Assembly: GCA_038874655.1 (NCBI GenBank) | Contig: JAVZBY010000002.1 | Location: 42,238 to 106,237, forward strand | Direction of reading: 5' to 3' | Source: Candidatus Woesearchaeota archaeon | GTDB lineage: Archaea; Nanobdellota; Nanobdellia; Woesearchaeales; GW2011-AR15 | Length of the DNA stretch: 64,000 nucleotides | In this document: piece by piece, positions 13,438 through 37,448 of the stretch | Layout of the letters: every line of letters begins with the position of its first letter | How positions within the stretch are numbered: position 1 is the stretch's first letter | Program-made: the position numbers and the translations under genes | The notes under the pieces: generated by a model | The model's database searches: none | The model's input: the letters and a program-made list of their open reading frames with translations, nothing else | What the model was told of the DNA's origin: nothing

Positions 13438-13513
13438 ATAACCTCTTTTTTTAATTTATTGATTTCTTAATTTATTAAAATTCTTTTAACTAATCATAGT
13501 TTAAATTATAAAT

Positions 13514-13580
13514 CTAGGCCTCAGCTAACTCTCTTTATCCTATATAGGACTACTCCTGAGTTTCTTCATTGGCTTACTAG
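13514..13580 (-). ncRNA. C/D-box small RNA (2'-O-methylation guide)
   Basis: GC-enriched intergenic island. Minus strand reads GCC-A-[AUGAAGA box C]-guide-[CCUA D']-UAU-[AGGAUAA C']-guide-[CUGA box D]-GGC, with terminal stem GCC/GGC (extendable CUAG/CUAG). Confidence 0.75.
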
Positions 13581-13618
13581 TTCTTAATTTTTTAAATTTT
13601 TTTACTTTTTAATATTTT

Positions 13619-14482
13619 TTATTTTTCATTAACAAATGCATGCTTTAAAGTTTCCTCACCAAATAATTTTACATGATGTCCTTTTGCATACATATATAAT
13701 GCAGTGTTGAATATTGTGTTAGCAGCACTAAAAACTAAAAACACAACAACTTCATAAACAACAAACAATAAGATTAAAGCAACACCTAATTGCCACACAA
13801 CACCTAATAAAAATATTCCAGGTATTAAAATTAATAAACCTAGTAAAACAAAAACAAACTCAGCCAAACCTAGCCCATAATGTCTAATTAATGATTCGCC
13901 CCATGTTTTTTTAATTGCATGAACACTATTTTTTAAAGCTTGGAATGGCCCTACATTATCAAAAACAATAGCAGGAACAACAAAAATACTTACAACCGAC
14001 CAAGCAGCTCCTAATAAACCAATAATTAAATTAAAAAACATTTTTGCTAAATCACTCTGTTTGCTTCTTCTAACAGAATCTTCTAAAATCCTTAATATTA
14101 AACCAACTGTAGCAGAAACAATAGACCATAAAAAAATCAGATGTATTCTTTTAAATGCTTCTTTTAATCCTTCCATAAAGCTAGGATCTTTGCCTTCAAA
14201 TCTTTTTTTTGCACAATAAACAACAGATACATTAAAAAAAGTAGCTATAAAACTTGTGCCTAAATAAAAAATAAAAACCAAAACATAAATTAAAAAATCT
14301 CCATATCCCTGTAATTGATCTCTTAGAATATCAGTTAATAAAAAAGGAATAGCCATAGCTAAAAAAAACAAGACAGAAAAAAAACTAGCTAATAATGGAA
14401 ATGCTAATATCTCTTTATCACTTTTAATAACACTAAAACTTTTTTTTGTAATTTCCCAACTTCTTGAAAATGTTTCAAACAT
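13619..14482 (-). CDS. Multi-pass membrane protein (DUF6159-like)
   Basis: About 6 TM; SWEITKKSFSVIKSDKEIL, FVVPAIV, KKTWGE and FNTALYMYA motifs. Confidence 0.7.
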   Translation of the reverse strand: MFETFSRSWEITKKSFSVIKSDKEILAFPLLASFFSVLFFLAMAIPFLLTDILRDQLQGYGDFLIYVLVFIFYLGTSFIATFFNVSVVYCAKKRFEGKDPSFMEGLKEAFKRIHLIFLWSIVSATVGLILRILEDSVRRSKQSDLAKMFFNLIIGLLGAAWSVVSIFVVPAIVFDNVGPFQALKNSVHAIKKTWGESLIRHYGLGLAEFVFVLLGLLILIPGIFLLGVVWQLGVALILLFVVYEVVVFLVFSAANTIFNTALYMYAKGHHVKLFGEETLKHAFVNEK

Positions 14483-16565: not shown

Positions 16566-16829
16566 ATGCCTGACAAAATTATTTCAGTTAGAATGCCAAA
16601 GTCATTAATAAATGAATTAAAAGAATTAGCAGATAAAAATCATTATTTAGATGTTAGTGAAGAAGTCAGAGCATTACTTAGACAAAAATACTTAGAGCAT
16701 CAAGATCCTTATTCAATTAAATTAATGGCTATAAAAGAAAGCATTTCAAAACATGCGGTTCCTGAAAAAATAAAATCCTTGAAAGAAGACCTAAAAAAAC
16801 TATTGGAGGAATTAAATGCTTTACAATAA
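16566..16829 (+). CDS. Ribbon-helix-helix protein with C-terminal helical extension
   Basis: IISVRMPKSLINELKELA...DVSEEVRALLR. Confidence 0.85.
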   Translation: MPDKIISVRMPKSLINELKELADKNHYLDVSEEVRALLRQKYLEHQDPYSIKLMAIKESISKHAVPEKIKSLKEDLKKLLEELNALQ

Positions 16830-19800
16830 TTTTATTCAAAATAAAGCGAGAATTAAAAAAATTAAAATACATAAATATTCATGGTTATTATTTTTTGTTA
16901 TAATCCTAATTAGTAGTTTAACTACAAAATACTTTATTGATGCAAATGCACAAGAAATCAACCAAACAATAATTAATCAATCTATTAATCAAACAATTTT
17001 AAATTCAACATTAATAGTTTGGCACACTAACAATACTTTTGTTAATGAAACTATAATCTTTTACGCGTTATACAAAAACCAAACAAACCAACACATAACA
17101 ATATTAGATAATGCAACATGTATTATAGAAATTGAAAATCAAAAAAATTTAATGCAATTTGATCAGTCTAATAAAACTTATTTCATAGAAAAAACCTTTT
17201 TTGAAAATAAAACTTATAATTATAATATTAATTGCAATTCAACAAAATATCAATCCAAAGAATTTACAGATATTATTTTAATAAGGTTAAACAATTTATC
17301 AAATAACTATTTACCAAATAACTCGTTATTGAATTATTCAACAAATTTTTCATCTAATACTACACTATCAAACATAACAAATAATAGTTCTCAAAATATA
17401 TCTCAAAATTTAACTAATTTAATTGATTTGGATAATGATGGCTTTAATAATTCAATAGATTGTGATGACTTAAATCCAAACATAAACCCAGGAAAAAAAG
17501 AAATTCTTTATAATAATATTGATGATGATTGTAATATTTATACAAATGATTATTTAATTTTAAATTTAAATACAGACAAATCATTATATCAGCCAAATGA
17601 GGTTGTAAAAATAACTATAAACTCCATAAATTTCTCTGACACATATCTAACAATAAACACACCAACAAATATATCTTATGTTTATATCTTTACAAATAAA
17701 ACATACCCCTTAACTCATAATTTTTCATTAACACAATCTAGCGGAAGATATACTATAGAAGCGATAAACTATCTTGAAAATTATTCTATACAAAATTCAA
17801 TTGAATTTAATGTTACCTCAAACTTTAATGTTGATATTTTTGTTAATCAGACAGAAGCATATGAAAATGAAAAAATACACTTTAAAGCAATAATCACAGG
17901 GAACATAGGAAATGTTAATATGATATGGAAAATGGATGACAATAATGAAGTTTACCAAAGTGAATTTGATTATAATTACACATATGCTAGATTATATAAT
18001 GTTGTTTTAATAGCGACAGATCAAGGTGGAAATCAAATAGTAAAAACAAAGCAAATAGCAATAAACAAAAAATACTTTTTAAGAATAAAAGTTATTGATA
18101 ATTCTACAAATGAAATTATATCTAATGCTACAATTAGACTAGATACAATAACACAAAAAGTAAATTCAACAGGTGAATTTGAATTTTTTATAACAAATAA
18201 AACCTATAATATAAAAGTATTAGCAGATAACTATTATAGTTATGAAGACGATTTAAAAATTAATAATTCTTTATTATTTACTGTAAAATTAGTTAAGAAC
18301 TTAGATTATGTTATTCCAGAAATTTATTTATTAAGCCCACAAAATAATACAGAAATAACCTCAACTAATAATCTTGAAATAAAATTCAAATTTAATGATA
18401 ACTCAAATGCAGATTGTTCATTATTAATTTCAAATGGAGATCAATGGTGGCAAGAATATCAAACATTATATAATTTATCTTCAAATTCAGAATACTTATT
18501 TAAACTAAATTTATCTGATCTTTCAGATATTAATGATAAATTAATCTATAAACTAAAATGTATTGATGATGATGAAAACATAGCATATACCCAAAATTAT
18601 TTTTTAAATATTTTAAACAATCAAAAGTTAAATCAAGAAAATAATGTAGAAATAACACAAACATCTTCCAATGATACAGAACAAGAAACAACTTATCAAG
18701 TCATAGAAAACATATATAGTGTGATTCCAGATTTTGACACTTATAGTCCAGATGACAAGAAAATAGTTGAATACTTAGACATGGAAACTTTAATTAAAGA
18801 TGCAAAAAGAAAACTTGAAATGGCTAACAGAGATCTATTTAATTTAAGATATAAACCTGACACAGAATCAATATTACAAGCAAGAGATGAAATCTATCAA
18901 AGAATAGAAAAAATAAAAGATGAAACTCCTTTATCTGTAAGCACGAAGAAAAAAGTAAACTTTGTTAAATACGTAGATGAAAACGAAATTGAAAATTACT
19001 TTGAAGAATATATAAAACTAAAAAACTTAAACATAGATAAAAATCTAAAAAAGAAATTAATAGAACAAAACAAACTTCTGCAGAAAAAATCAACTATTGA
19101 AACAACAGCATACAATGTAGAAATTAAATATATTTCTGGCAGAATACAAGATATTACTTTATTAGTAAGGAATATTGATTCAGATTTATTATCAAATCTA
19201 AATTTAGTTGAATTTGTTCCAAAAGATATAGAAGAGACAACTGACAACATGGTTTTTATAACCCAAGCACAAATATTAAATAAAGATCCTGTAATTGAAT
19301 ATGATTTATCAAAATTAAATGAGATTGTTTATTATTTTAAAGAATCTATTTCATTAGATGATTTACCTAAAATAAAACCTTTATTGATAACAACAAAATT
19401 AGATGAAACCTCAAACAAAATAACAGGATTTGCTATATTTGATAATCTTGGTTTTTCAGAAACAAACAAAAAAATATTCATAATTGAATTAATAATTATT
19501 TTTATCTTGTTAGGAATTTATTTATACTTCTATTTCACAAATAGAGAAACAATTGTTATAACAAATAATAATGATAAAAATAGTAATAAAAATCAAAACA
19601 ATGAATTCCAAGCATATACAAAAGATATGTCAAAACATTACTTAAATGTTAGACAATATGAATTTACTAATGAGAGCATATCAAAAGAAAATTCCCAAAT
19701 AAATAAATTCTCACAAGCAAAAACTTTTGTAGATAATGAAAAAGTAAATTACATTTTTTCAGTTTTATCAAAAGCAGAGCATGACATCTCTAATAAGCAA

Positions 19801-20133
19801 ATAAAAAATGCAGCTTTAAAATATCATGAACTTAAATTTTTATATGAATTATTAAACAAAAAAGACCAAAAAATCATTAAACCCTATTTGATAAACTTAA
19901 TTGACAAAATAACACTTTATCATATTAATGAATTGCATGACTTAGCTATTTATGAATTAACTATGGGCAATCTAGAAAATGCTCTAAATTATTATAATGA
20001 AATAGAACAAGAATATGAAAAACTATCAGAAAAATCAAAAGATAAAATTTTTGGAAAATGCTGCCAATTAGCAATTTTAATAAAAAATAATTCACTAAAT
20101 AATTCATTATTTATAAAAAACACTCAAAAATAA
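16816..20133 (+). CDS. Large single-pass surface glycoprotein (Ca-binding DxDxDG/MopE-like repeat, MG2-like, PKD, carboxypeptidase-regulatory-like Ig domains; TPR-like cytoplasmic tail)
   Basis: Signal peptide, dense N-x-S/T sequons, DLDNDGF..DCDD..INPG..DDDC, TDKSLYQPNE, TM at about aa 890-910, duplicated A..Y.E...YE.L tail. Confidence 0.8.
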   Translation: MLYNNFIQNKARIKKIKIHKYSWLLFFVIILISSLTTKYFIDANAQEINQTIINQSINQTILNSTLIVWHTNNTFVNETIIFYALYKNQTNQHITILDNATCIIEIENQKNLMQFDQSNKTYFIEKTFFENKTYNYNINCNSTKYQSKEFTDIILIRLNNLSNNYLPNNSLLNYSTNFSSNTTLSNITNNSSQNISQNLTNLIDLDNDGFNNSIDCDDLNPNINPGKKEILYNNIDDDCNIYTNDYLILNLNTDKSLYQPNEVVKITINSINFSDTYLTINTPTNISYVYIFTNKTYPLTHNFSLTQSSGRYTIEAINYLENYSIQNSIEFNVTSNFNVDIFVNQTEAYENEKIHFKAIITGNIGNVNMIWKMDDNNEVYQSEFDYNYTYARLYNVVLIATDQGGNQIVKTKQIAINKKYFLRIKVIDNSTNEIISNATIRLDTITQKVNSTGEFEFFITNKTYNIKVLADNYYSYEDDLKINNSLLFTVKLVKNLDYVIPEIYLLSPQNNTEITSTNNLEIKFKFNDNSNADCSLLISNGDQWWQEYQTLYNLSSNSEYLFKLNLSDLSDINDKLIYKLKCIDDDENIAYTQNYFLNILNNQKLNQENNVEITQTSSNDTEQETTYQVIENIYSVIPDFDTYSPDDKKIVEYLDMETLIKDAKRKLEMANRDLFNLRYKPDTESILQARDEIYQRIEKIKDETPLSVSTKKKVNFVKYVDENEIENYFEEYIKLKNLNIDKNLKKKLIEQNKLLQKKSTIETTAYNVEIKYISGRIQDITLLVRNIDSDLLSNLNLVEFVPKDIEETTDNMVFITQAQILNKDPVIEYDLSKLNEIVYYFKESISLDDLPKIKPLLITTKLDETSNKITGFAIFDNLGFSETNKKIFIIELIIIFILLGIYLYFYFTNRETIVITNNNDKNSNKNQNNEFQAYTKDMSKHYLNVRQYEFTNESISKENSQINKFSQAKTFVDNEKVNYIFSVLSKAEHDISNKQIKNAALKYHELKFLYELLNKKDQKIIKPYLINLIDKITLYHINELHDLAIYELTMGNLENALNYYNEIEQEYEKLSEKSKDKIFGKCCQLAILIKNNSLNNSLFIKNTQK

Positions 20134-20134
20134 A

Positions 20135-23100
20135 ATGTTTAAAAAGATAAAAAAAGAACTAAAAAAAGAGGAAAATAATAAAAATAAGGATAAAAATAGT
20201 GGCATATTTAGATTCATGTATAAATTTAAAAAAATAGATTTTGCTAAACTTAACTTAAATATAGAGATTATTCTTTCAAATTTATTAATTATTTTACTAA
20301 TTGTTATTGCTATAATTTCTTTACTAATTTTAAGAGATTTTATAGGATATGTTCCTGGCTATAATCAAGCTCAAGGTGGTAGAATTACAGAATTAAACAT
20401 ATATCAAGTTTATCCTGCAAGTATATGGAATGGTGTATATGGAATTGCATTACAAGCGCCTGTATTTAATACATCTTGGTTTATTTATGCAAATCCAGCA
20501 GGTATGTCTGAAATAAATCCTATTTATCCTTGTTTTGAGCCAGAGATTGAACATGAATTGTATGCAACCACTTTAAGCCCTTCACAAATAGTCTGGGAAA
20601 ATATTACAGCAGCAACACCACAAATGTTAGATGATTATGTGGGTATTTCTTATAATGAATCCATGTCAGCAACGAAAAATTTCATTTATACAATGACTGT
20701 TGATATTGGAACAAGAACAATTCCAAATGTTCCTACAATGTATTTAAGGCAATATGATAATCCAGGTAGCAGAGAATTTCCAGTAGGTATTTTACAATAT
20801 AATGGAAATATTATTATGGTTTCAAAAATAAACCCAAGTTATTTAACAGGCTATAGACCAGATAAAATCTTTAATTTTGAAATGATTGTTCCAGTTCCAA
20901 TTAATACAACTAATTTGAAATATAATTTATATGTTGATCCTTTTGATTACTGTCCTCAAGGAGAGGCAGGAGAGAAAAAAATTCCAAGTAATATTCAAGG
21001 TTATGTTAGAGATAATCAAACACAGCAATTATTAGAAAATGCATTGGTTGCAATAGGAACAAGAATTTATATTACTGGGCCAGATGGAATTTACAATATT
21101 ACTAACATACAACCAGGTAATTATTATATTGTAGCCATAAAAACAGGATTTAATAATTTTGTTTCTAATGTAACTATTCCAGAAAACACAACTATAGAAT
21201 ATAATATTAGTATGGAACTTTATCAAGAGCCATTAACAGGAACAGGCCCAGGAATTGGAACAGGGATTGGCCCTGGACAAGATGCACCAGGAACACAAAC
21301 AAAATCAGGTGAAGGTCCTGGAATTGGTCCAGGTATTGGTCCTGGAATTGGGCCTTTTATTGAAAAACCACAAGAATTTGGAATTGATCACTGGCTTTCT
21401 TTAGATAAATTAAAAAAGAAAATCAAGATTGGATATTTCTTTACAGATAATTTATTAATATTTAGTTTCAGAAAAGAAACAGCAAAAATACAAATAAAAA
21501 TTACAGGAAATGCATCAAAAATTTTAGAATTAAGTGATACACAAGCAACAATAGAACAAAATAAATATGCTAATATTACAATTAGAGGGTTTGGTTTAGA
21601 AAAAGGTGTTTATACTGGATTTTTAGAATTATCTGGAGATTTTAATGATACTTTGCCAATAGAAATAACAGTTACAGATGAAGAAAAATTACCTATTGAA
21701 GCAATGTTGATGCAATTAGATGTTTTAACAAAGCATCCATTAATGGGAAATAAGTTTAAATTTAGAGTGAATCTACAGAATTTATTAATAGAAGATTCTT
21801 ATAATGTAAGATTAGACTATTATATTAGAGGGGTTGAAGCAGAAACTTCTAATTATTCAATGTATGTTGGCAATGATACTTTAACATTGTTTACTTCAGA
21901 ATCAATAATAAAGGAAACATTTATTCCACCAGATTGGTCAAAAGGTGAATACTATTTAATTGTTGAAGCAAATTATTTAGATTTAAATGCAAGAACTTCT
22001 ACAATTTTTGAAGTTTATGAACCTATCTATAAATATAAAGTATTAGGTAAATTAGAATTGTGGAAATTATTATTAGCTTTATTGATTTTAGCTTTGTTAA
22101 TAATTATTATTTTATTGATTAGGCATAGAATTAATGCAACTAAAAGGTTCCATGCAAAAGTTGAATATAACCTATTGCCAAAAAAAGGTCCAAGATCTTT
22201 GTATGTAGGAAAAATTGCAGAAACAGAAATAGATACTTATTTTGATATGGATAAATTAACTGTTCATACTATTATAGCAGGTTCTACTGGAGGTGGTAAA
22301 TCTATTTCAGCACAAGTGATTGTAGAAGAATGTCTATTAAAAGGAGTTGCTGTTGTTGTTTTTGATCCTACAGCACAATGGACAGGAATGCTTAGAAAAT
22401 GTACAGATGAAAAAATGCTATCCTTTTACCCAAGATTCCATATGACTAAAAAAGATGCTCGTGCATTTAATGGAAACATCAGAGCAATAAAAAATCCTAG
22501 AGAAAAAATAGATTTAATGAAATATTGGAAACCTGGCGAAATCCAAGTATTCACTACAAGTACATTAGATCCAAAAGATATGGATATTTTTGTAGCTAAT
22601 ACAGTTAGAGAAGTATTCCATTCAAATTTACAAGAATACAGAGGATTAAGAATGTTAATGGTTTACGATGAAGTTCATAGATTATTGCCCAAATTTGGTG
22701 GCTCAGGTGAAGGTTTTGTCCAAATTGAAAGAGCATGTAGAGAATTTAGAAAATGGGGTATTGGTGTAATGCTAGTTTCACAAGTTTTAGCAGACTTCGT
22801 TGGACAAATTAAAGCTAACATTAACACAGAAATTCAAATGAAAACCAGGGATGAAGGTGATTTGCAAAGAATTGAAACAAAATACGGCAAAAGCTACATT
22901 CAAGAGTTAGTTAAAGCACCAGTAGGAAGTGGTATGGTGCAAAATTCTGATTGGAACAGAGGTAAACCCTATTATGTTACATTTAGACCAATTATGCACA
23001 GTGTAGTAAGATTAACAGATCAAGAATTAGAACAATACAATAAATATAATGAAATTGTTGATGATTTATCATATCAATTAGAACAATTAGAACAAGAAGG

Positions 23101-23794
23101 AAAAGATGTTTTTGATTTAAAATTAGAATTAAAATTAGCATTAGACAAAATAAAATCAGGAAGCTTTAACATGGTTGAAATTTATTTAGAAGGGTTAAAA
23201 CCAAGAATAGAAAAAATATGGCAAGAGCTTGGAAAAACACCTAAAAAAAGAGAAATTGAATTGGTTTCAGAAGAAGAGTTAAAATCAGCAATTGAATCAG
23301 CAAAAAAAGAAAGTGAGCAATTAAAAACAACACAAACAAATTCAGGAACCGAGGAGAAAAAAGTCCTCGGTTTAAATGACGAAGTTCCTCCAAACAAAAT
23401 ATTGAAATTAGTAAATGGCACATTAGTTGTTAAATTAAAAGCATTGTATGATGAAATAAACGCATTAAAAGATGAAGAATTTAAACAACATGTAAATGAA
23501 GACAAAAATGACTTTTCAGTGTGGATAAGAGATGCATTAAGCAATGACAAATGGGCTGATATTGCAGACACAATATTAACAAAAGAAGATTATTTAGCAT
23601 TTTTAGAAGCATTAGATCAAGGAAAAGAAAAAACCTTCAAAGTAAAAACACCAAGACCAAAACCCTTTTCAAGTAAAAAAGATACAGGGACAAATACACA
23701 ACAACAAAACACAAATCAAGAAAACACAAAACAACAAACAACAGAAAATCAATCTTCACAGAATTCGCAAACAAATCAACCAAATACAAATTAA
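20135..23794 (+). CDS. Extracellular-domain / TM / HerA-VirB4-like (DUF87) ATPase / DUF5752-like fusion protein
   Basis: N-terminal TM, ~570-aa beta-rich ectodomain and second TM. Walker A GSTGGGKS, VVVFDPT, Walker B MVYDEVH, REFRKWG Arg finger, VSQ; then HVNEDKNDF domain and Q/N/T tail. Confidence 0.9.
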   Translation: MFKKIKKELKKEENNKNKDKNSGIFRFMYKFKKIDFAKLNLNIEIILSNLLIILLIVIAIISLLILRDFIGYVPGYNQAQGGRITELNIYQVYPASIWNGVYGIALQAPVFNTSWFIYANPAGMSEINPIYPCFEPEIEHELYATTLSPSQIVWENITAATPQMLDDYVGISYNESMSATKNFIYTMTVDIGTRTIPNVPTMYLRQYDNPGSREFPVGILQYNGNIIMVSKINPSYLTGYRPDKIFNFEMIVPVPINTTNLKYNLYVDPFDYCPQGEAGEKKIPSNIQGYVRDNQTQQLLENALVAIGTRIYITGPDGIYNITNIQPGNYYIVAIKTGFNNFVSNVTIPENTTIEYNISMELYQEPLTGTGPGIGTGIGPGQDAPGTQTKSGEGPGIGPGIGPGIGPFIEKPQEFGIDHWLSLDKLKKKIKIGYFFTDNLLIFSFRKETAKIQIKITGNASKILELSDTQATIEQNKYANITIRGFGLEKGVYTGFLELSGDFNDTLPIEITVTDEEKLPIEAMLMQLDVLTKHPLMGNKFKFRVNLQNLLIEDSYNVRLDYYIRGVEAETSNYSMYVGNDTLTLFTSESIIKETFIPPDWSKGEYYLIVEANYLDLNARTSTIFEVYEPIYKYKVLGKLELWKLLLALLILALLIIIILLIRHRINATKRFHAKVEYNLLPKKGPRSLYVGKIAETEIDTYFDMDKLTVHTIIAGSTGGGKSISAQVIVEECLLKGVAVVVFDPTAQWTGMLRKCTDEKMLSFYPRFHMTKKDARAFNGNIRAIKNPREKIDLMKYWKPGEIQVFTTSTLDPKDMDIFVANTVREVFHSNLQEYRGLRMLMVYDEVHRLLPKFGGSGEGFVQIERACREFRKWGIGVMLVSQVLADFVGQIKANINTEIQMKTRDEGDLQRIETKYGKSYIQELVKAPVGSGMVQNSDWNRGKPYYVTFRPIMHSVVRLTDQELEQYNKYNEIVDDLSYQLEQLEQEGKDVFDLKLELKLALDKIKSGSFNMVEIYLEGLKPRIEKIWQELGKTPKKREIELVSEEELKSAIESAKKESEQLKTTQTNSGTEEKKVLGLNDEVPPNKILKLVNGTLVVKLKALYDEINALKDEEFKQHVNEDKNDFSVWIRDALSNDKWADIADTILTKEDYLAFLEALDQGKEKTFKVKTPRPKPFSSKKDTGTNTQQQNTNQENTKQQTTENQSSQNSQTNQPNTN
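21235..21354 (+). repeat. Gly-Pro linker repeats (GPGI)n in the ectodomain
   Basis: TGTGPGIGTGIGPG...GEGPGIGPGIGPGIGP; 12-nt degenerate DNA repeat ggtcctggaatt. Confidence 0.8.
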
Positions 23795-23850: not shown

Positions 23851-24747
23851 ATGGCACAAATTGAAACTAAAAGTTCAAATTACTTTTATCTAAAAGATGG
23901 AAGAATAATAAAAACAATAGAAGAACTTCCAGATATTTTAGAAAATACTAGTGATCAAGTTTTTTATGAACATGTTAATCTTTATAAAAATGATTTTGCT
24001 AAATGGGTTTATGAAGTTTTTAATGAAAATGAACTATCAAAATTATTGGGCAATATAAAATCAAAAGAAGAAACAATTAGAACATTGAGAGCATATCTTA
24101 AAATAAAAGAGCAGAAAAAATTAAAAGAAGAAAAACAAAACAAAAATGAAAACATAAACGAAAATCTTTCTATTCATCAAACAAATGAAACTTTCATAAA
24201 AAACACAGAAATAAAAATAGAAGACAAAAAAAAAGAAATAAATGAAACCTCACTAAAAAAAGAAATAAATGAAGAAAAAATAAATGAAACTCAAAACCAA
24301 TTTAATAATAATATAAAAAAAGAGATACAAAATAATAATGAAAAAATTTCTGATAAATTAGAAACTACTCTAAAAAGTCAAGAAACAATTTATAATGAAA
24401 ATAATACTGAAAACCCAGATGATTTCTTTAAGAAAAATCCAATCATAATTGATAACATCATAGAAGCAAAAAAAGAAAACATAGTTTTAGAACCATTAAC
24501 ATTTATAGATTATGATAAAAATAATCCCAAAAAAACAATAGAGATTTTCAAAGACACATATGCAAAAGCATACCAAAGAATGAGTTTTCTTAGAAAGTCA
24601 GGATTTGATACTTCTTTAGTAGAAATAATGTTATTTAGGGTTTTGCCAAAAATCAAATTATATGAATCAACAAACGAAGAAAAAGATGCCTTAACAGTAA
24701 AAAGATTAATTAATGAAGTAATAGAAGAGTTAAATAATTTAAAATAA
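23851..24747 (+). CDS. Cytoplasmic protein with N-terminal DUF5752-like domain and C-terminal helical hairpin
   Basis: FYLKDGRIIKTIEEL...FYEHVNLYKNDFAKWV, low-complexity linker, then LRKSGFDT helical domain. Confidence 0.8.
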   Translation: MAQIETKSSNYFYLKDGRIIKTIEELPDILENTSDQVFYEHVNLYKNDFAKWVYEVFNENELSKLLGNIKSKEETIRTLRAYLKIKEQKKLKEEKQNKNENINENLSIHQTNETFIKNTEIKIEDKKKEINETSLKKEINEEKINETQNQFNNNIKKEIQNNNEKISDKLETTLKSQETIYNENNTENPDDFFKKNPIIIDNIIEAKKENIVLEPLTFIDYDKNNPKKTIEIFKDTYAKAYQRMSFLRKSGFDTSLVEIMLFRVLPKIKLYESTNEEKDALTVKRLINEVIEELNNLK

Positions 24748-24927: not shown

Positions 24928-25983
24928 ATGTTTTTATTTAAACCGAAAGTTCCAAGAATTGAAGATCAAGAAGAAAAAAAAGAGGAACCTCAACAAGAAG
25001 AAAAATCAGAACAAGTTAATAGTTCTGCTGCTGCTTTATCAGCTGAAATTATAAAATTAAAAGCACAGTTTGATCAATTCTCAGAATTAAGAAAAGTAAT
25101 TAATGAGCAGATTGGAGAACTTAGAGGAATGATAATGGATACTAATAGATCAATGCAGGATGTTGAAATTAAAACAGTAAAAGCAGTTGATTTAGTTGAA
25201 GCAGTTCATCCAGATAAATTAATGGTAGAAGTTAGAAAACAAGATGCAAAAATAGAAGCACTAAAAGCAGGAATTGAGAGCAATGATTCAATAATGAAAT
25301 CTCTTATGGAGCAATTAAAAGATATGAGACATGAAATTTCAACATTCAGAGGTGTTGAGCAAGTAGTAAAATTAAATGAAGAAGTAAAAAAGGAATTAAT
25401 GGATATAAAAAAAATAGAAGCAACAGTTGAAAGACATTCTGATAAAATAGAAGGCATATTCATTGAAACACAAAAAAAATTCCAAGAATTTGATTCATTA
25501 AATGATAAATTCAAAGAATTGCAAAAACAAGTTTCAAGTTTATTAGAAAATTCTGATCAAGTTAAAGTTAAATTAGCAACAACAGCATCTAAAAAAGAAG
25601 TAGAAGACTTAGTAAATAAGTTTAATGACTTTGAAAAACATGTTGGTAATATTATTGATTTATTAACCAAAAGAACAGATGATACATTAAAAGAAATAGA
25701 TGAAAGATTCAAAAAATTAGAAAATAGCATGAATGATGCATTTGAAAAAAGATTAAAAAGAGCTGAATTAATGAACTCATTAATAGAAAAAATAGAAAAA
25801 GATGCACCAAGAATAGCAAAGGAATTACAAATAAGTGAAAAACTAAAAGAAGTTGAAATAAAAAAGATTGAAAGCCAACCAAGTCAAGAAATTAAAGAAA
25901 ATGTCCAAAATGTAGAATCAGAGAAAAAGGGATTTTTCGCAAAACTATTTGGTAAAAAAGAAGAAAAAAAAGATACTAAATAA
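24928..25983 (+). CDS. Long coiled-coil protein with C-terminal amphipathic membrane-targeting helix
   Basis: About 280 aa of heptads; ends KKGFFAKLFG (MinD-MTS-like); GAGG RBS. Confidence 0.75.
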   Translation: MFLFKPKVPRIEDQEEKKEEPQQEEKSEQVNSSAAALSAEIIKLKAQFDQFSELRKVINEQIGELRGMIMDTNRSMQDVEIKTVKAVDLVEAVHPDKLMVEVRKQDAKIEALKAGIESNDSIMKSLMEQLKDMRHEISTFRGVEQVVKLNEEVKKELMDIKKIEATVERHSDKIEGIFIETQKKFQEFDSLNDKFKELQKQVSSLLENSDQVKVKLATTASKKEVEDLVNKFNDFEKHVGNIIDLLTKRTDDTLKEIDERFKKLENSMNDAFEKRLKRAELMNSLIEKIEKDAPRIAKELQISEKLKEVEIKKIESQPSQEIKENVQNVESEKKGFFAKLFGKKEEKKDTK

Positions 25984-26049: not shown

Positions 26050-26589
26050 ATGGAATTTTTAATTTATATAATTTTAACTTTAAATTTTTCAATAACACTT
26101 ATGAGTTTATTTATTTGTTTTTATCTTTTATATCATTATTTTAAAGATAAGCATAAAAATTATACAATTCATTCATTAATCAAAGGGATTTATATTTTAA
26201 CATTTTTTCTTTTTATAGATACGTTATATAATACTTTTTTGAGTTTATCTCAATACGGATATATTAATCAAAAAATTTATTTTTTATTATCTTCATTTAA
26301 TTTGCAATTATTTCCTAAAATTGGCTTATTTTTTTCAACAACATATTTAGTATATTTTATTATGGAAAAAAGAATTGATGAAATTAAATCAAAAGAAGAC
26401 ACATTAAAAGAATTAAAGGAATTAAATCAGCAGTTAGAAAAAAAATTAATAGAAACAGAAAAAGCACAAGAGTTATTAGAAAAAAAGACACAGGAATTAG
26501 AAAAATATAATGAAATAGCAAAACAAAGAGAGCAAAAAATGTTGGAATTAATGAAAAAAATTGAAAAAATAGAGAAAAAAGTAAAATAA
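26050..26589 (+). CDS. 3-TM membrane sensor with C-terminal RELKM-type coiled coil
   Basis: Three TM helices then ELEKYNEIAKQREQKMLELMKKI; GAGGTG RBS. Confidence 0.75.
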   Translation: MEFLIYIILTLNFSITLMSLFICFYLLYHYFKDKHKNYTIHSLIKGIYILTFFLFIDTLYNTFLSLSQYGYINQKIYFLLSSFNLQLFPKIGLFFSTTYLVYFIMEKRIDEIKSKEDTLKELKELNQQLEKKLIETEKAQELLEKKTQELEKYNEIAKQREQKMLELMKKIEKIEKKVK

Positions 26590-27670: not shown

Positions 27671-28507
27671 ATGAATCAAAATTCAAACAATATTCAAATT
27701 AATGAATTAAAACAGGGTAATGAAAAATTAATTCCAGAAAAATCAAATGAAAAAAATAAAGAAATTTATTTTCTAACTGGAATTCAAGGTTTTGATGATT
27801 TAGTAGGAAAAGGATTTCCAAAAGGTTCACAAATTTTAGTTTCTGGCGGCCCTGGAACAATGAAAACAACATTTTGTTTACAAATTCTTACAAACCTATC
27901 AAAAAAAGGACACAAATGTTTATATCTAACCTTTGAAGAGCCAGAAGAAAATCTGATAAGAAATGTTTCTTCATACGGATGGAACATTCAAGATCTTATA
28001 AAGAACAAAAAACTAATGATAAAAAGTTTAGACCCATTTAAAATGTCTAGAAATGTTGAAACATTATTAGCACAAGCTCGTGGTGAATTACTAATTGAGA
28101 TAAATGAAGCAAAAAATTTATTGCCAAATGACTTTGATCCAGAATTTGTAGTTATTGATTCATTGTCAGCAATTTCAGCAGGTTTTTTCGGAAAAAAAGA
28201 AGGTTATAGGGCATATATGTCACAAATTTTTGACACTTTTAGAAAAATGAAAATTAACACTTTCTTAATCACAGAGATTGAGCATAGCACAACAAGATAT
28301 AGTCAAAGTGGTGTTGAAGAGTTCTTAGCAGATGGAGTGATTGCATTATACAATTTTAGACAAGGGAATCAAAGAATAAATGCAATTGAAATAATAAAAT
28401 TAAGAGGAGTAGAGCATAAAAAAAGAATCGTTCCTTTTAAAGCAATTGCAAATCAAGGAATTATAGTTTATCCATTAGAAGAATTATTTATACAAGATTC
28501 ACAATAA
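27671..28507 (+). CDS. KaiC/RAD55-family single-domain RecA-like ATPase
   Basis: TGIQGFDDL, Walker A GGPGTMKT, YLTFEE, VVIDSLS, EEFLADGVI and KLRG motifs. Confidence 0.92.
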   Translation: MNQNSNNIQINELKQGNEKLIPEKSNEKNKEIYFLTGIQGFDDLVGKGFPKGSQILVSGGPGTMKTTFCLQILTNLSKKGHKCLYLTFEEPEENLIRNVSSYGWNIQDLIKNKKLMIKSLDPFKMSRNVETLLAQARGELLIEINEAKNLLPNDFDPEFVVIDSLSAISAGFFGKKEGYRAYMSQIFDTFRKMKINTFLITEIEHSTTRYSQSGVEEFLADGVIALYNFRQGNQRINAIEIIKLRGVEHKKRIVPFKAIANQGIIVYPLEELFIQDSQ

Positions 28508-28517
28508 AAAAATAAAA

Positions 28518-31500
28518 ATGAAAAAATACTTTAATCAAAATTATAGAAGATTTATCTTTTTATTATTATTTTTTATATTGATAAATATAGTCTCTTCTTT
28601 ACCAGGAAACTTATGTTTTGAAAGTCCATGTATTTGTGGTTCAGCATGTAATTATGGATATGAAATAAATAATGGTTTTAATACAATAGATTCTTGTCAA
28701 GATGGACCAGAATACACATATGAGTATGTTCATGATATTAATATATCAAATCTAAACTTTTCTTATTTTAGAGGAGGAGATATTATAAAAATAGATGCTT
28801 ATGTTGATTGTGATCCAGATGGAGATGAAATAACATTTGTTTATCATAATGGAAGTTCTTGGGTTCCTTTTTATAATGCAAATTGTAATGTTAATGGTAA
28901 AACACATATCATAACAACAAAAACTCTTGATAATTTTGAAGGTACTCACACAATTAGGATAACTTTGGCATACAATGGTATTTCAAATATGATATGTGCT
29001 TATAATCATGATTCCTTATACTCAGATACAGATGATATTTCTTTTTATGTTTATGATAAAAATAAAGATTTAGAAAAACCGAAAGTAAATATAATCTCTC
29101 CTGAAAATAGTATTACCTATTTCTATGAAAATAATTTAATAATCAACATAAGTGTTAATATTTCAGATAACATTAAAGTACAAAATGCTTCAGCATTAAT
29201 TACATGGGGCTCTAAAAACATGACATTAGATTTAATTAATAGTTCAGGAATATTTAAAGCAAATTTTACAAATACAAGTGATTTTGCTAAATATAATTTA
29301 ACAATAATTGCTTATGACAATTCTTCAAATGTTAATAATACAGAATCTATTATCTTTTTTATTAATAAAACAAAAGATATAAAAATTATAACTCCTACTG
29401 AAAATAAATTATACCCTTATAAAGACTTTAACATAGAATATATTATAGATAACAATGAAACAAATATTTATTATTCTTGGGTAGAATTAAATTCTGGTTT
29501 AGCAAGCTTTGATGGGAACAATAAAAAAATTTCAGTGGAAGAGCAATCAGATGACTCTGTTAATTGTTATGAGATAAATAATATTTCACAATCTTTTCAA
29601 TTAGAAAAAGATACTTATTTATCACAGCTAGAAATAATGCTTAAAAAATCTGGAAACCCTGATAATGCAAAACTAGACATAAAATCAGATCTCAATAATG
29701 AAGTTTTAGCAACAGGGATAATTGATTTAAATTCAGTTAATCAAGAATTTAATTGGGTTGTTATAGATTTAAACGAAAAAATAAAATTAAATAAAAGTAC
29801 AAAATATTGGCTTTTTTTAAATACTACAGAATCAAATATAGATAGTGAAAATTACTATGAATGGATGCTTACATCTAATATTTATCAAAATGGTTCCTAT
29901 ATAAATAATGTTTCAAAAGATTTACTCTTTATAATATATGATTATTATAGCTTTAACTTGACAGCATCACCATTATCATCAGTAATGGATTTAATTGTAT
30001 ATGCCGAAACAGACCAAGGTCAATTAAGCTCAAACCTTATAACATTTTATCTTGATGATAATTCTCCAGTAATAAATGAATATAATTTTACACCGAATAA
30101 CTATAAAGATATTGATCCAGGAACCACAATAAATTTTACTGTTAATGCAACTGATAATTTAGAAATTTCTAATGTTTATCTTATTTATAGATTGAATGAT
30201 TTTAATTGGATAGAAAAGATAATGGATTATTCTAATGGTATTTATAAAACAAATTTGACATTAAATCAAACAAATTTAACATTCTTTTTTAGAGCTTTTG
30301 ATACAAGTAATAATTTAGTTGAAACTTCTGACACAAAAATAGAGTGTGATTATGAAAATAATTGGTACATTGAACCTTCTAAAATTAATACAACCTCAGG
30401 TTTAATAGGAAAAAATAAATCCTTAGGTATGATAAATATTTACTTAGATTCAGATTATGATCTTGATATTAATGTTTCTTATATTTCTAATTTATCAATT
30501 CTTTTAAATGGAAGTGATTCTCTCTTATTAAAAATACCTTCTAATAAAAATTCTTCTTTTGAACTAGTTATCTTAAGTTCAAACAAAACATCAAGAGATA
30601 ATGTAATCTTAAATTTTAACTCTTTAAATGATTCAAATCCTAAAAACAATCAGTTAAATTTTACATATGTTTCTTTACTTTCAGGACCATATCTTTTTTT
30701 AGAGATAATAGATTATTATCCAGTAGTTTATCAAGGTGAATATCTAGCAAATCTAAAAGCAAAGTTAATAAATCTAGGAAATGAAACAGCTTACAATATA
30801 ACTATTAATTGGCTTTTACCTGAGGGAATTATTCCAAAAAGAAATTCAACACAAAAATTTTCAGAACTACAGCCAGGCGGAATTTCTTATATCGTATCTC
30901 AAATTTCAGCTCAAGTTTCTGAAACAGCATCATTAGGTGTTAAAGAATTGAAAGTTATTGCAAATGCTTCTGATTCATTTGGAAATTATTCAGATGAGAC
31001 AATAAAATACATAGAAATAAAATCAAATCAACAACCCATCATTAGTTATTCATCAGGACAAGGTTCAAAATCCGCAGACACTTATATTCCAACAATAATT
31101 AAAAATGAAGACAATCTAAATATAAATTTAAATAAATTAGAAATTAAAAAATTAATCCCTTATACAACAAATATAACTTTCATAAATAATATCTCAAACA
31201 AAGACTATATTGTAGAAATTGAAATAGAGGGATTGTTTAAGGCATATTATAACCTATCGGATTATTTATTTTATATTCCAAAAAATAAAGAAAAAAAAAT
31301 AAATCTAACAATTAATCTACCTTCATACTATGAATTAGGCATAAAAAAATATAAACTAATAGTTAATCTTTATGACATAAATTCTCTTTATGATATAAAT
31401 TATTCATATGATTTAATTAATACTAATGAAACTGATGAAATAAAAAACAAATTAAAAACATTTGACAAAAATAAATTTAGTTTATTAAAACAGATAAAAA

Positions 31501-32960
31501 AAGAATTCGACATAATTGTTTTAGATAACGATGAAAAGATATATTGTTTAAACAATGCATCTGAAAAAATAAATCTTTTAGATATAGATAAAACAGATAT
31601 TAATCAAAAATATCATCAAGCAGAAATAAATTTTAAAAATCAAGAATATGATTTAGTCTTAGAATTTTGTGATTATCTAAACAATTTTATTGACAAATAT
31701 GAAAAAACTAGAAATTCATTAGACTATTTAAAAAATGAGATTAGTCAATTAAAAAAAGAAGGATATAAAACAGAAGAAATTGAAAATTACTATTTATTAA
31801 TAAACGAAACTATCTATAAAGGTAATCTAGAAAAAGCAAATGAACTTTTAGAAAAAACAAATCTACTTAAATCTAATTTGGAACAACCTGCACAAATAAA
31901 AATAACCAATTTTATTATTAAAAATAAAAATTCTTTGATAATAACAGCTATCTTTTTACCTATATTTATTTTATCACTAAGCAGATTAATTTATCTAACA
32001 AAAACAGAAACTAAACTAAAAAACTTAGAAAAAGAAAAACAAAAATTATTAGAGTTATTAAAAAAAATGCAAGATTATTATTATGATAAACATTTTTTAA
32101 GTTCAGATTTATATAAAATATCAATCCATAAAATAAGATTTAGATTAGGTCAAATAGAAATTTCTTTGCTAAAATTAAGAAATAAATTAAAAAATACTAA
32201 TTTAACTAAAAATGATATTGAAAACTTGATAAAAGAGATTCAAGAAGACTACTATATCAAAAAAATTATCTCAGAGCAAACATATGAAGATTTAATAAAA
32301 TATTATTATAAACAATTAAATGATTTAGAACAAAAAAATAAGTTAGAACAAAAAAATAACTTAATAAATAAAACAATAGAAAAAATAGATAATAAAAAGA
32401 TTAGACTAAAATTAACTTCTACAAATAATTCTATTTTATATTCAAAAAAATCAAATAAATATGATAATAAAGAACAAATTAAAACAATACATCCAAGTAA
32501 ATATGAAAAAAAAGAAGCATCCTTAAATAATAATACAAAAAAAAATGAAATAAACGAAAAAGAAGAAAAGAATCATTTTTTAAATAATACTTTATATAAT
32601 ATCAATGAAACAACAAAGCAAAACTCAAAAAATAATAAATCAGAATTAAACTTAGATAATATAAAAGATAATATAGAAGTTAACATAGACTTTTATAAAA
32701 GATGCGAAAAAAATAAAGCTTTTATTTTAAATAATGGATTAAAATTATATTCAATTTTTGATTTATATGAAAAATTAGTTTTTAATTTAATTGATAATCA
32801 AACTTTTGAATATCATGTAAATCAGTATAAAAATGATTTTTCAACTTGGATATCAGATGTGTATAACTATAATAAACTGGCTAAAGAAGTAAAAAAAATT
32901 AATTCAAAAGAACAATTAATAGACTTTTTTAAAAAAATAATCGAATATAATAAAAAATAA
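28518..32960 (+). CDS. Large single-pass surface glycoprotein with cytoplasmic helical repeats and C-terminal DUF5752-like domain
   Basis: Signal peptide, Cys-rich N-terminus, Ig-like domains with many sequons, TM at about aa 1140-1160, two Q.DYY...S..Y repeats, FEYHVNQYKNDFSTWI. Confidence 0.8.
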   Translation: MKKYFNQNYRRFIFLLLFFILINIVSSLPGNLCFESPCICGSACNYGYEINNGFNTIDSCQDGPEYTYEYVHDINISNLNFSYFRGGDIIKIDAYVDCDPDGDEITFVYHNGSSWVPFYNANCNVNGKTHIITTKTLDNFEGTHTIRITLAYNGISNMICAYNHDSLYSDTDDISFYVYDKNKDLEKPKVNIISPENSITYFYENNLIINISVNISDNIKVQNASALITWGSKNMTLDLINSSGIFKANFTNTSDFAKYNLTIIAYDNSSNVNNTESIIFFINKTKDIKIITPTENKLYPYKDFNIEYIIDNNETNIYYSWVELNSGLASFDGNNKKISVEEQSDDSVNCYEINNISQSFQLEKDTYLSQLEIMLKKSGNPDNAKLDIKSDLNNEVLATGIIDLNSVNQEFNWVVIDLNEKIKLNKSTKYWLFLNTTESNIDSENYYEWMLTSNIYQNGSYINNVSKDLLFIIYDYYSFNLTASPLSSVMDLIVYAETDQGQLSSNLITFYLDDNSPVINEYNFTPNNYKDIDPGTTINFTVNATDNLEISNVYLIYRLNDFNWIEKIMDYSNGIYKTNLTLNQTNLTFFFRAFDTSNNLVETSDTKIECDYENNWYIEPSKINTTSGLIGKNKSLGMINIYLDSDYDLDINVSYISNLSILLNGSDSLLLKIPSNKNSSFELVILSSNKTSRDNVILNFNSLNDSNPKNNQLNFTYVSLLSGPYLFLEIIDYYPVVYQGEYLANLKAKLINLGNETAYNITINWLLPEGIIPKRNSTQKFSELQPGGISYIVSQISAQVSETASLGVKELKVIANASDSFGNYSDETIKYIEIKSNQQPIISYSSGQGSKSADTYIPTIIKNEDNLNINLNKLEIKKLIPYTTNITFINNISNKDYIVEIEIEGLFKAYYNLSDYLFYIPKNKEKKINLTINLPSYYELGIKKYKLIVNLYDINSLYDINYSYDLINTNETDEIKNKLKTFDKNKFSLLKQIKKEFDIIVLDNDEKIYCLNNASEKINLLDIDKTDINQKYHQAEINFKNQEYDLVLEFCDYLNNFIDKYEKTRNSLDYLKNEISQLKKEGYKTEEIENYYLLINETIYKGNLEKANELLEKTNLLKSNLEQPAQIKITNFIIKNKNSLIITAIFLPIFILSLSRLIYLTKTETKLKNLEKEKQKLLELLKKMQDYYYDKHFLSSDLYKISIHKIRFRLGQIEISLLKLRNKLKNTNLTKNDIENLIKEIQEDYYIKKIISEQTYEDLIKYYYKQLNDLEQKNKLEQKNNLINKTIEKIDNKKIRLKLTSTNNSILYSKKSNKYDNKEQIKTIHPSKYEKKEASLNNNTKKNEINEKEEKNHFLNNTLYNINETTKQNSKNNKSELNLDNIKDNIEVNIDFYKRCEKNKAFILNNGLKLYSIFDLYEKLVFNLIDNQTFEYHVNQYKNDFSTWISDVYNYNKLAKEVKKINSKEQLIDFFKKIIEYNKK

Positions 32961-36561: not shown

Positions 36562-36589
36562 AATAAAATAGATACATCAGATATTTAAA

Positions 36590-37444: not shown

Positions 37445-37448
37445 AAAA

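Follow-up and report, generated by a model that had tools for sequence, protein, structure and literature searches.

SPEARE proteins are surface proteins of Nanohaloarchaeota which, in the passages on them in Hamm 2019 (PMC6642349), lie mostly outside the cell, with a transmembrane (TM) helix toward the C-terminus and an intracellular part that is the most conserved region and was then called type III restriction-like. The same passages report versions from 655 to 8553 amino acids (aa), with proteins of 655 aa and 717 aa counted as SPEARE, at least one laminin-G domain in all SPEARE proteins together with multiple adhesion domains in the ectodomain, their detection by proteomics, and 'similar sequences' in Woesearchaeota, Aenigmarchaeota, Micrarchaeota, and Altiarchaeales. 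In its treatment of giant nanohaloarchaeal surface proteins, Reva 2023 (PMC10266531) describes a signal peptide, immunoglobulin (Ig)-like repeats, a TM helix, a cytoplasmic 'VirB4/TraG-like' ATPase, and a coiled coil, argues that the SPEARE proteins of Hamm 2019 share that ATPase domain, and disputes the presence of serine protease and toxin-like domains in the giants. In the passages concerned, further papers mention genes called 'small SPEARE-like' and a version of 12,127 aa. The attachment of DPANN archaea to their hosts and the exploitation of those hosts are an open question for which no candidates stand out more than the SPEARE proteins; at up to more than 9,000 aa, these have been too large for biochemistry, and their cytoplasmic domain has been annotated in three different ways. 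The subject of this analysis is a gene at positions 20135-23794 (+) of a 64,000-nucleotide stretch of a Candidatus Woesearchaeota archaeon (assembly GCA_038874655.1, contig JAVZBY010000002.1, positions 42,238 to 106,237; hereafter the window). The 1219-aa protein it encodes is best explained, with good probability, as a mid-sized representative of SPEARE, a family of DPANN surface proteins.

The focal open reading frame (ORF) is open through all 1219 codons, exactly between these coordinates. Its product is predicted to consist, in order, of an N-terminal signal anchor, a glycosylation-rich ectodomain of about 575 aa, a second TM helix (TM2), a P-loop ATPase of the HerA clade, a helical region, and a DUF5752-like tail. 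The features of the gene are as follows.

20135..23794, + strand: focal ORF, SPEARE-type ectodomain-TM-ATPase protein, 1219 aa (ORF list and translation)
20267..20335, + strand: N-terminal hydrophobic signal anchor, aa 45-67 (Kyte-Doolittle 3.14 for aa 45-63, preceded by a K/R-rich 44-aa N-terminus)
20336..20989, + strand: distal ectodomain domain, fold not recognised, aa 68-285 (alignment A2)
20990..21229, + strand: CarboxypepD_reg domain, a prealbumin-like beta-sandwich, aa 286-365 (Pfam PF13620, E 9.5e-9, aa 287-361)
21230..21367, + strand: Gly-Pro-rich (GPGI/V)n linker, aa 366-411 (sequence)
21368..22042, + strand: juxtamembrane two-domain module (collar), aa 412-636 (profile from 16 long-form orthologues)
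22064..22120, + strand: TM helix joining ectodomain to ATPase, aa 644-662 (Kyte-Doolittle 3.41; 6 K/R within the next 20 aa)
22205..23149, + strand: P-loop ATPase of the HerA clade, aa 691-1005 (DUF87, HerA_C; PDB profile search)
22280-22303, + strand: Walker A motif GSTGGGKS, aa 716-723
22661-22678, + strand: Walker B motif VYDEVH, aa 843-848
22739-22759, + strand: REFRKWG motif, aa 869-875
aa 880-884, + strand: LVSQV motif (SQ at aa 882-883)
23150..23359, + strand: conserved helical, coiled-coil-like region, aa 1006-1075 (alignment A1; mean identity 61.5%)
23390..23629, + strand: DUF5752-like module of about 80 aa in the cytoplasmic tail, aa 1086-1165 (BLASTP and profile matches)

A junction between TM helix and ATPase produced by chance or by misassembly is ruled out, since 18 loci from independent assemblies and hundreds of database proteins share this layout.

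The order of signal, adhesion-type ectodomain, TM helix toward the C-terminal part, conserved cytoplasmic P-loop domain, and coiled coil is common to the focal protein and to SPEARE. About 575 of the 1219 aa are predicted to lie outside the cell, ahead of the TM helix and the cytoplasmic C-terminal region. The intracellular domain is one found in nanohaloarchaeal giants, as judged from labelled relatives: P0167 (Nanohaloarchaea), P0241 (Nanosalina), and P0325 (Nanosalina VS9-1) share the ATPase at 60%, 51%, and 47% identity over 97-99% of the query. P0325 carries ResIII (E 1.5e-8) and NEW3, while P0167 carries Laminin_G_3, both in agreement with published SPEARE descriptions; because ResIII matches this ATPase (26/32 aligned family members), the restriction-type annotation of 2019 finds an explanation. 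Two of the three nanohaloarchaeal giants checked also match the focal juxtamembrane module, and other labels among the family matches are Micrarchaeota, Aenigmatarchaeota, Altiarchaeota, and Hadarchaeales. Literature searches on archaeal, DPANN, or Woesearchaeota HerA, on DUF87, and on DPANN membrane ATPases found no account of this architecture (the single 'HerA' match in PMC9938205 is a person's name), which is described under SPEARE, and the Woesearchaeota matches of Hamm 2019 (Fig. S17, Table S3) may already contain close relatives of the focal protein. A preliminary description of this DNA had held that membrane-bound relatives lack large ectodomains; this statement falls, since the layout is the known SPEARE one of Nanohaloarchaeota, and hence no novelty, and giant relatives of this ATPase are abundant.

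The focal protein also differs from described SPEARE proteins. At 1219 aa it is far from the 3,000-9,400 aa of the giants, its N-terminus is an uncleaved-looking anchor rather than a signal peptide, and its head, made of the unrecognised domain and CarboxypepD_reg, is particular to a mid-length class of relatives. Pfam detects no toxin-like region in it. Weighing against membership are the lack of a serine protease in the focal protein and of laminin-G in both it and 15 orthologues, where Pfam finds only CarboxypepD_reg/PEGA-type domains; moreover, the link is drawn through labelled nanohaloarchaeal relatives and published architecture, not through direct comparison with the named SPEARE sequences.

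The orientation of the protein follows from its two hydrophobic segments. The preliminary description had counted one TM helix; the helix leading into the ATPase is confirmed, but the additional segment at aa 45-63 turns the ectodomain into a loop between anchor and TM helix. The 44 aa before the anchor contain 14 K/R versus 6 D/E residues. Such an anchor is also found in long-form relatives, while short relatives begin instead with a cleavable-looking signal peptide and have one TM helix per chain. The core of the helix at aa 644-662 is free of D/E/K/R/H/N/Q except for its first K. Across the family, the median number of K+R residues around this helix is 6 after versus 2 before, and the focal protein has 6 in the 20 aa after TM2. 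Sequons number 14 in aa 68-638 versus 5.0 expected from composition, compared with 3 versus 3.5 expected in the cytoplasmic part, and two cysteines of the distal ectodomain domain, C133 and C273, are invariant across 16 orthologues (alignment A2). Because of the two hydrophobic segments, the positive-inside rule, the sequon enrichment between the helices, and the two invariant ectodomain cysteines, the focal protein is predicted to be a hairpin, with its N-terminus inside, about 575 aa outside, its C-terminus inside, and the ATPase in the cytoplasm. The opposite placement of ectodomain and ATPase that had been supposed is thus borne out by the positive-inside rule and the sequon bias.

The sequon-bearing ectodomain of about 570 aa with a carboxypeptidase-regulatory-like segment and (GPGI)n repeats had likewise been read correctly, as the sequon excess, PF13620, and the linker at aa 366-411 attest. 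The term 'Ig-rich', in turn, holds for a single directly supported domain, CarboxypepD_reg, and not for the membrane-proximal 225 aa (aa 412-636), which have no Pfam match in the focal protein. Among 16 orthologues, PF13620 is matched by 12 and PF13715 by 14. The domain occurs in 99/109 mid-length relatives and is restricted to that class, as is the distal domain at aa 68-285, whose profile matches 96/109 mid-length, 3/74 short, and 5/138 giant relatives. The distal domain belongs to no Pfam family, and an Atlas search gave neither a usable match nor a model. The linker shows a mean identity of 73% to 15 orthologues, above both flanking ectodomain domains (50-60%); its GPGI/V repeat pattern is reminiscent of elastic GPGxx repeats. 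The collar profile aligns with residues 2698-2889 of P0325, overlapping that protein's Glyco_hydro_123_N_2 match (residues 2672-2775, E 1.1e-4, 22.5 bits, below the 27-bit cut-off) and its NPCBM_assoc/NEW3 match (residues 2809-2885).

The class of the ATPase was assessed by profile comparison. Pfam finds the DUF87/HerA central domain (E 4.6e-12) and HerA_C in the focal protein, and both are matched by 32/32 aligned family members, with a best E-value of 1.4e-15 for DUF87. In the PDB profile search, HerA (4d2i) ranks first at E 5.8e-15, followed by seven more HerA-type entries and, lower down, by FtsK (3e-4, 29 positions), IcmO/DotL (7e-4), and VirB4 (0.03); the best NCBIfam match is likewise HerA. 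Besides ResIII, weaker Pfam matches among the 32 aligned members include AAA_10 (26/32, best E 1.8e-7), FtsK_SpoIIIE (24/32), TrwB_AAD_bind (20/32), and T4SS-DNA_transf (20/32), and the FtsK_SpoIIIE model PF01580 reaches E 0.0068-0.031 on the focal protein, in the P-loop region only. The Walker A, Walker B, REFRKWG, and SQ motifs that had been recognised after the TM helix are all present behind the helix at aa 644-662, and the catalytic motifs are invariant in alignment A1; the arginine after Walker B may act as the finger. Mean identity to 15 orthologues is 85.5% for the ATPase, compared with the 50-60% of the ectodomain domains. By E-value ranking rather than phylogeny, we place the ATPase in the HerA branch of the FtsK-HerA superfamily and not with VirB4/TraG. 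The earlier label 'HerA/VirB4-like' therefore keeps its first half, an intact HerA-branch ATPase, and loses its second, VirB4 matches being far weaker.

With HerA (4d2i) the focal ATPase has in common a RecA-like core and the motif order Walker A, DPxxxW/Y, Walker B, R-K-x-G, SQ. It differs in having a TM helix in place of the N-terminal barrel, a shorter insertion, a membrane anchor, and an ectodomain. The source genome (1.26 Mb, 97% complete) contains five DUF87-type genes; besides the focal gene, these are a canonical HerA on another contig, a soluble 349-aa paralogue, and two more. The focal ATPase lacks the N-terminal HerA barrel, as its alignment with this canonical HerA (E 2e-11) begins only at HerA residue 103 and skips about 110 aa of HerA insertion; only about 50 aa separate the TM helix from Walker A, which leaves the HAS barrel of canonical HerA without a counterpart. 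HerA also differs in its usual company: in line with the absence stated earlier, no NurA reaches the Pfam cut-off in this genome, where PF09376 scores at best 14.9 bits (cut-off 21 bits) on a different contig, and the cassette has none. A canonical HerA repair helicase, or an assembly or fusion artefact, was considered because the best sequence matches go to HerA, and it is refuted by the missing barrel and insertion, the absence of NurA above cut-off, the separate HerA gene, and the 18 loci. The soluble paralogue is 42% identical, has neither TM helix nor ectodomain, and starts 8 nucleotides (nt) before the stop codon of a 400-aa MFS_1 transporter gene (Pfam E 5.8e-44; locus L002:321-2565, contig C5 of the same genome), which suggests that the ATPase family is also able to pair with a polytopic membrane protein.

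The ranking of these profiles bears directly on the reading put forward for the giant nanohaloarchaeal relatives in the part of PMC10266531 concerned with them, in which a VirB4/TraG-like ATPase drives effector secretion through or along the ectodomain into the host, as a straw resembling a type IV secretion system (T4SS). The weak AAA_10, TrwB_AAD_bind, and T4SS-DNA_transf matches are in its favour, as is the arrangement of two TM helices followed by the ATPase, which resembles that of coupling proteins. However, HerA-type models are far ahead (DUF87 at 1.4e-15 versus AAA_10 at 1.8e-7, and HerA at 5.8e-15 versus VirB4 at 0.03 in the PDB), the VirB4 N-terminal family PF03135 appears in none of the Pfam scans made, and the AAA_10 cut-off is passed in this genome only by the soluble paralogue, once neighbouring stretches are summed. 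No other T4SS-like gene is found in the conserved cassette, and the ectodomain consists of beta-sandwich-type and unrecognised domains in a chain, with nothing indicating a tube. Secretion through such a straw is accordingly considered unlikely.

Other membrane-anchored ATPases offer partial parallels. Coupling proteins have an N-terminal membrane anchor directly before a ring ATPase, with two TM helices and a loop outside. TrwB/VirD4/TraD and FtsK/SpoIIIE belong to the same superfamily and give weak Pfam and PDB matches, but their sequence similarity is much weaker than that of HerA, the focal outside loop of about 575 aa exceeds the few tens of coupling proteins, and neither the window scans nor the 18 loci show a relaxosome, T4SS, or FtsK gamma-domain context. 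In the type VIIb system, EssC, a membrane-anchored ATPase of the FtsK/HerA superfamily, stands beside EsaA, a membrane protein with a very large ectodomain. Unlike EssC/EsaA, the focal system has just one ATPase domain and neither FHA domains nor WXG100-like genes, and no scan matched it to them by sequence.

More than 1,500 relatives were found. Word-indexed searches with the ATPase returned 876/3437 candidates at E<=1e-3 among proteins of 670-2134 aa, the best 120 being 67-93% identical with the same layout, 258/1104 candidates among proteins of 2135-5000 aa, and 464/2116 at E<=1e-20 among shorter proteins, many of which are contig fragments. The search by hidden Markov model that had been proposed as a check on the distribution of the architecture was carried out exhaustively with HMMER on 50%-identity representatives, and it yielded 1211 at E<=1e-3 and 366 at E<=1e-30, in proteins as long as 6253 aa; in 150/150 of the HMMER matches listed, the ATPase is close to the C-terminus. 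Family statistics were drawn from a length-stratified sample of 341 proteins from these searches, which includes partial proteins and is not unbiased; dropping 16 rows without a Walker A pattern match and 4 with fewer than 110 aa before Walker A left 321.

A hydrophobic 19-mer occurs 20-130 aa before Walker A in 312/321 relatives, the other nine lying just under threshold, and the distance from its end to Walker A is nearly constant (median 57 aa, 5th-95th percentile 53-64 aa), while the part before the TM helix spans 47 to 5614 aa in the 312 relatives measured. The collar profile matches 279/321 relatives (64/74 short, 107/109 mid-length, 98/138 giant) and ends at a median of 8 aa before the TM helix. 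The two-domain juxtamembrane collar, the TM helix, and the fixed spacing of about 57 aa to Walker A thus form the conserved core of the family. Around this core, the distal ectodomain is freely exchanged. According to a FastTree phylogeny of 315 near-complete ATPase matches (FastTree support, midpoint root), the N-terminal part switches length class 58 times or more. The clade that holds the focal protein is supported and has 66 rows (35 mid-length, 30 short, 1 giant); the one that holds Nanosalina has 131 rows, 106 of them giants. Some short proteins on long contigs have a TM helix alone, and others are soluble. Short (about 800 aa) and mid-length (about 1200-1500 aa) members often stand in tandem in one cassette (loci L057 and L058 of genomes G045 and G024, and genomes G214 and G070), and the genome of the window has the mid-length form only. 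In the SPEARE passages of Hamm 2019 and Reva 2023, the HerA-type match, the collar with its fixed spacing, the coiled-coil co-occurrence set out below, the aliphatic TM helix, and the soluble and ectodomain-less relatives were not found.

These family data argue against the self-contained channel that the preliminary description had envisaged, a hexamer of one polypeptide forming a continuous conduit from ATPase pore through TM ring to ectodomain channel. A ring would be expected from HerA/FtsK-type homology, and the fixed TM-Walker A spacing with a membrane-proximal collar suggests a ring geometry carried across the membrane. Nevertheless, the TM core holds zero strongly polar residues in 160 of the 321 relatives and one in 115, which cannot line an aqueous pore; short forms, with one TM helix per chain, would give six helices only; members with a TM helix alone and soluble members exist; and the distal ectodomains are swapped as often as the tree indicates. 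Such a conduit is highly improbable. The other option named in that description, a receptor-ATPase or motor, may hold.

The focal ORF sits in a conserved cassette, whose members are listed below together with a glycoprotein farther downstream that shares the tail module.

16816..20133, + strand: upstream partner, 1105 aa, with signal/TM segment, ectodomain with 42 sequons, TM helix at aa 887-905, and 200-aa cytoplasmic tail (stop 1 nt before the focal ATG)
23851..24747, + strand: 298-aa cytoplasmic protein with N-terminal DUF5752-like module and conserved C-terminal domain (PF19027 at 24.4 bits versus a 23-bit cut-off, aa 1-100)
24928..25983, + strand: 351-aa coiled-coil protein with conserved ends MFxFKKK and GFFxKLFGxKKK (alignment A3)
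26050..26589, + strand: 179-aa membrane and coiled-coil protein, one hydrophobic segment above threshold (weakly conserved, 5/18 loci)
28518..32960, + strand: 1480-aa surface glycoprotein with 57 sequons, TM helix at aa 1140-1158, and a DUF5752-like module ending the tail (PF19027 E 5.2e-4, below cut-off)

A homologue of the 1105-aa glycoprotein lies directly upstream in 16/18 loci (three of them truncated at the end of a contig), 13/18 encode the 298-aa protein as an ORF of its own downstream, and both also occur in L057 and L058, where the order is upstream glycoprotein, short form, mid-length form, 298-aa protein, and coiled-coil protein. The 351-aa coiled-coil protein is found in 16/18 loci, the two without it being contigs of 5.6 and 3.7 kb. 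Genes farther out are not conserved across the 18 loci. The module of about 80 aa recurs in three proteins, the 298-aa protein and, in their tails, the focal protein and the 1480-aa glycoprotein: BLASTP with the focal module reaches the glycoprotein tail at E 1e-11 and the N-terminus of the 298-aa protein at E 1e-9, and PF19027 scores above cut-off in the orthologues P0010 and P0050 and in the 298-aa protein, with no match on the focal tail itself. A literature search for DUF5752 found no description. Directly before the 1480-aa glycoprotein gene stands a KaiC-like ATPase gene (278 aa, Pfam E 1.1e-49; together window positions 27671-32960, +), and this pair recurs at 55-68% identity in 2/18 related loci (L009, L013).

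The coiled-coil protein accompanies the ATPase beyond the close orthologues. In 13 distant, giant, or tandem loci, its gene adjoins the ATPase gene in 8, one has a weak match on the opposite strand, and 4 (one a short contig) have none. Across 301 genomes of the phylum, the ATPase (E<=1e-40) was detected in 52 and the coiled-coil protein (E<=1e-8) in 56; the two coincide in 48, with 4 genomes having the ATPase only, 8 the coiled-coil protein only, and 241 neither, counts to be read with the relatedness, and hence non-independence, of the genomes in mind. The four ATPase-only genomes carry divergent or truncated ATPase copies, and 38/59 coiled-coil matches lie 0-5 kb downstream of the ATPase on the same strand. 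An obligate pairing was considered and is rejected by the eight genomes in which up to 15 kb around the coiled-coil gene yield no ATPase match; the pairing is frequent, not obligate. In L060, one of these eight, a small protein with the DUF5752-like module adjoins the coiled-coil gene, with no family ATPase nearby, and the ATPase may join a more general system formed by the coiled-coil protein and the module.

Searches with the 351-aa protein returned no PDB family (the best hit, Syntaxin-12 at 3.5e-5, is coiled-coil noise and is not taken as homology), no consistent Pfam family among 24 aligned relatives (Baculo_PEP_C being the most frequent, 8/24), and only archaeal hypothetical proteins as Atlas neighbours; a single member matched PspA_IM30 at 7e-4, a match not relied on. 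Its hydrophobic-basic ends may be membrane-binding peptides. The window's copy lacks exactly seven residues, one heptad ('INERFTR'), that are kept in 15 close orthologues. In the focal protein itself, the region at aa 1006-1075 is best called coiled-coil-like, by its sequence pattern and the Reva 2023 description of relatives rather than by computation. The coiled-coil protein and the common tail module are likely to be the cytoplasmic partners of the ATPase.

We infer a function for the family from its sequences, and we tentatively favour a ring at sites of cell contact that translocates or remodels a polymer. The ATPases would assemble as a ring under the membrane, as in their HerA, FtsK, and coupling-protein relatives, anchored by 12 plain TM helices, and the collars and heads would project from the cell. 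On the outside, each chain presents the variable head, the Gly-Pro-rich linker, and the collar; on the inside, the ATPase sits at a fixed distance from the membrane, followed by the helical region and the DUF5752-like module, which would serve for docking. The domain types and the SPEARE literature suggest adhesion by the head, and ATP would be spent on moving or remodelling a polymer, somewhat more likely nucleic acid than protein, where the head binds another cell. Since the TM helix is aliphatic and soluble and head-less relatives exist, a self-sufficient pore is unlikely and other components would be needed, so that passage across the membrane would be supplied by these rather than by the protein's own helices.

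Several observations weigh against this picture. HerA-type rings in defence systems serve as platforms rather than translocases, and because of this, translocation does not follow from homology. In addition, no nuclease, pilus, or channel gene lies within the conserved cassette, the family is patchy (52/301 sampled genomes of the phylum), and the eight genomes with the coiled-coil gene alone (L060-L067) show no ATPase match within the up to 15 kb available. More broadly, the collar-TM-ATPase core, the 351-aa protein, and the DUF5752-like tail modules may constitute a distinct DPANN trans-membrane machine, set apart from T4SS, the type VII secretion system, FtsK, and Ced, that couples ATP hydrolysis to host-contact events, with the giant SPEARE proteins as elaborations and the short and mid-length forms as minimal versions; this proposal is possible rather than probable.

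An alternative that is possible, but in our judgement short of probable, keeps the ring and dispenses with transport. The ring would then translocate nothing and would act as an adhesin organiser or mechanical switch, clustering six adhesin ectodomains and, with the coiled-coil protein and the DUF5752-like tails, building or remodelling a sub-membrane scaffold that controls attachment to the host. It would accommodate the occurrence of one module of about 80 aa on the focal tail, on the tail of the 1480-aa glycoprotein, and in the soluble 298-aa protein, the tight linkage of ATPase and coiled-coil protein with its presumed membrane-binding ends, the TM helix as a plain anchor, the conservation of the Gly-Pro-rich linker, and a cassette in which no channel-forming partner is conserved. 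On the other hand, the contacts among its proposed partners are presumed, the 85.5% identity and intact catalytic motifs of the ATPase suit a processive motor at least equally, and the soluble paralogues, one beside an MFS transporter, indicate that the ATPase can work without an adhesin.

The platform role of HerA-type rings also underlies a further alternative, in which the ring is the activation platform of a surface immune receptor whose hypervariable ectodomain detects viruses or competitors. The PADLOC models HerA (E 3.3e-15) and mad8 (E 4.7e-14) match the focal ATPase, and the patchy distribution, the hypervariable ectodomains, and the tandem copies would be in keeping with such a role. 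However, no effector such as a nuclease, Sir2, or protease is fused or conserved alongside, the conserved neighbours are surface and coiled-coil proteins, and the PADLOC matches are generic HerA-domain ones; the combined PHROGs and PADLOC scans gave only generic HerA, terminase, or P-loop matches and assigned no system. An immune receptor is very unlikely here. Under the contact-site ring favoured above, as under any of its rivals, the focal protein of 1219 aa and the forms of about 800 aa retain the whole conserved core at sizes that fit expression and cryo-electron microscopy. The leads from the analysis are a motor that is HerA-like rather than VirB4-like, an invariant collar with an invariant spacing between TM helix and motor, and the likely cytoplasmic partners named above. 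Even if merely a further family member, and not a new kind of system, the focal protein is a useful model.

The remaining observations concern the window at large. Its G+C content is very low (about 15-31% in 2-kb windows), close relatives of its genes carry the labels Woesearchaeota, Nanoarchaeota, or Pacearchaeota, and Rfam and tRNA scans of it gave no matches. The sequencing runs holding this DNA are labelled hot-springs metagenomes, which has no bearing on expression, and among the sequencing runs no RNA run containing the focal sequence is listed. A 4796-aa ORF at 45567-59957 (+) has at least 12 tandem copies of a domain of about 95 aa and no ATPase domain; a single copy of the same domain occurs in the 1105-aa upstream glycoprotein (profile positions 392-487). 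It is followed by large ORFs at 59979-61841 and from 61838 to beyond 64000, the latter with a Big_7 domain. A sensor cluster at 34744-42084 (+) comprises a 605-aa PAS/GAF protein, a 284-aa SBP_bac_3 protein, a 279-aa coiled-coil-like protein, and a 1271-aa histidine kinase with two SBP_bac_3 domains. Finally, a Bat-like cluster at 11603-14482 (-), unrelated to the focal finding, has BatA/VWA, DUF58, and DUF6159 membrane proteins in a row.

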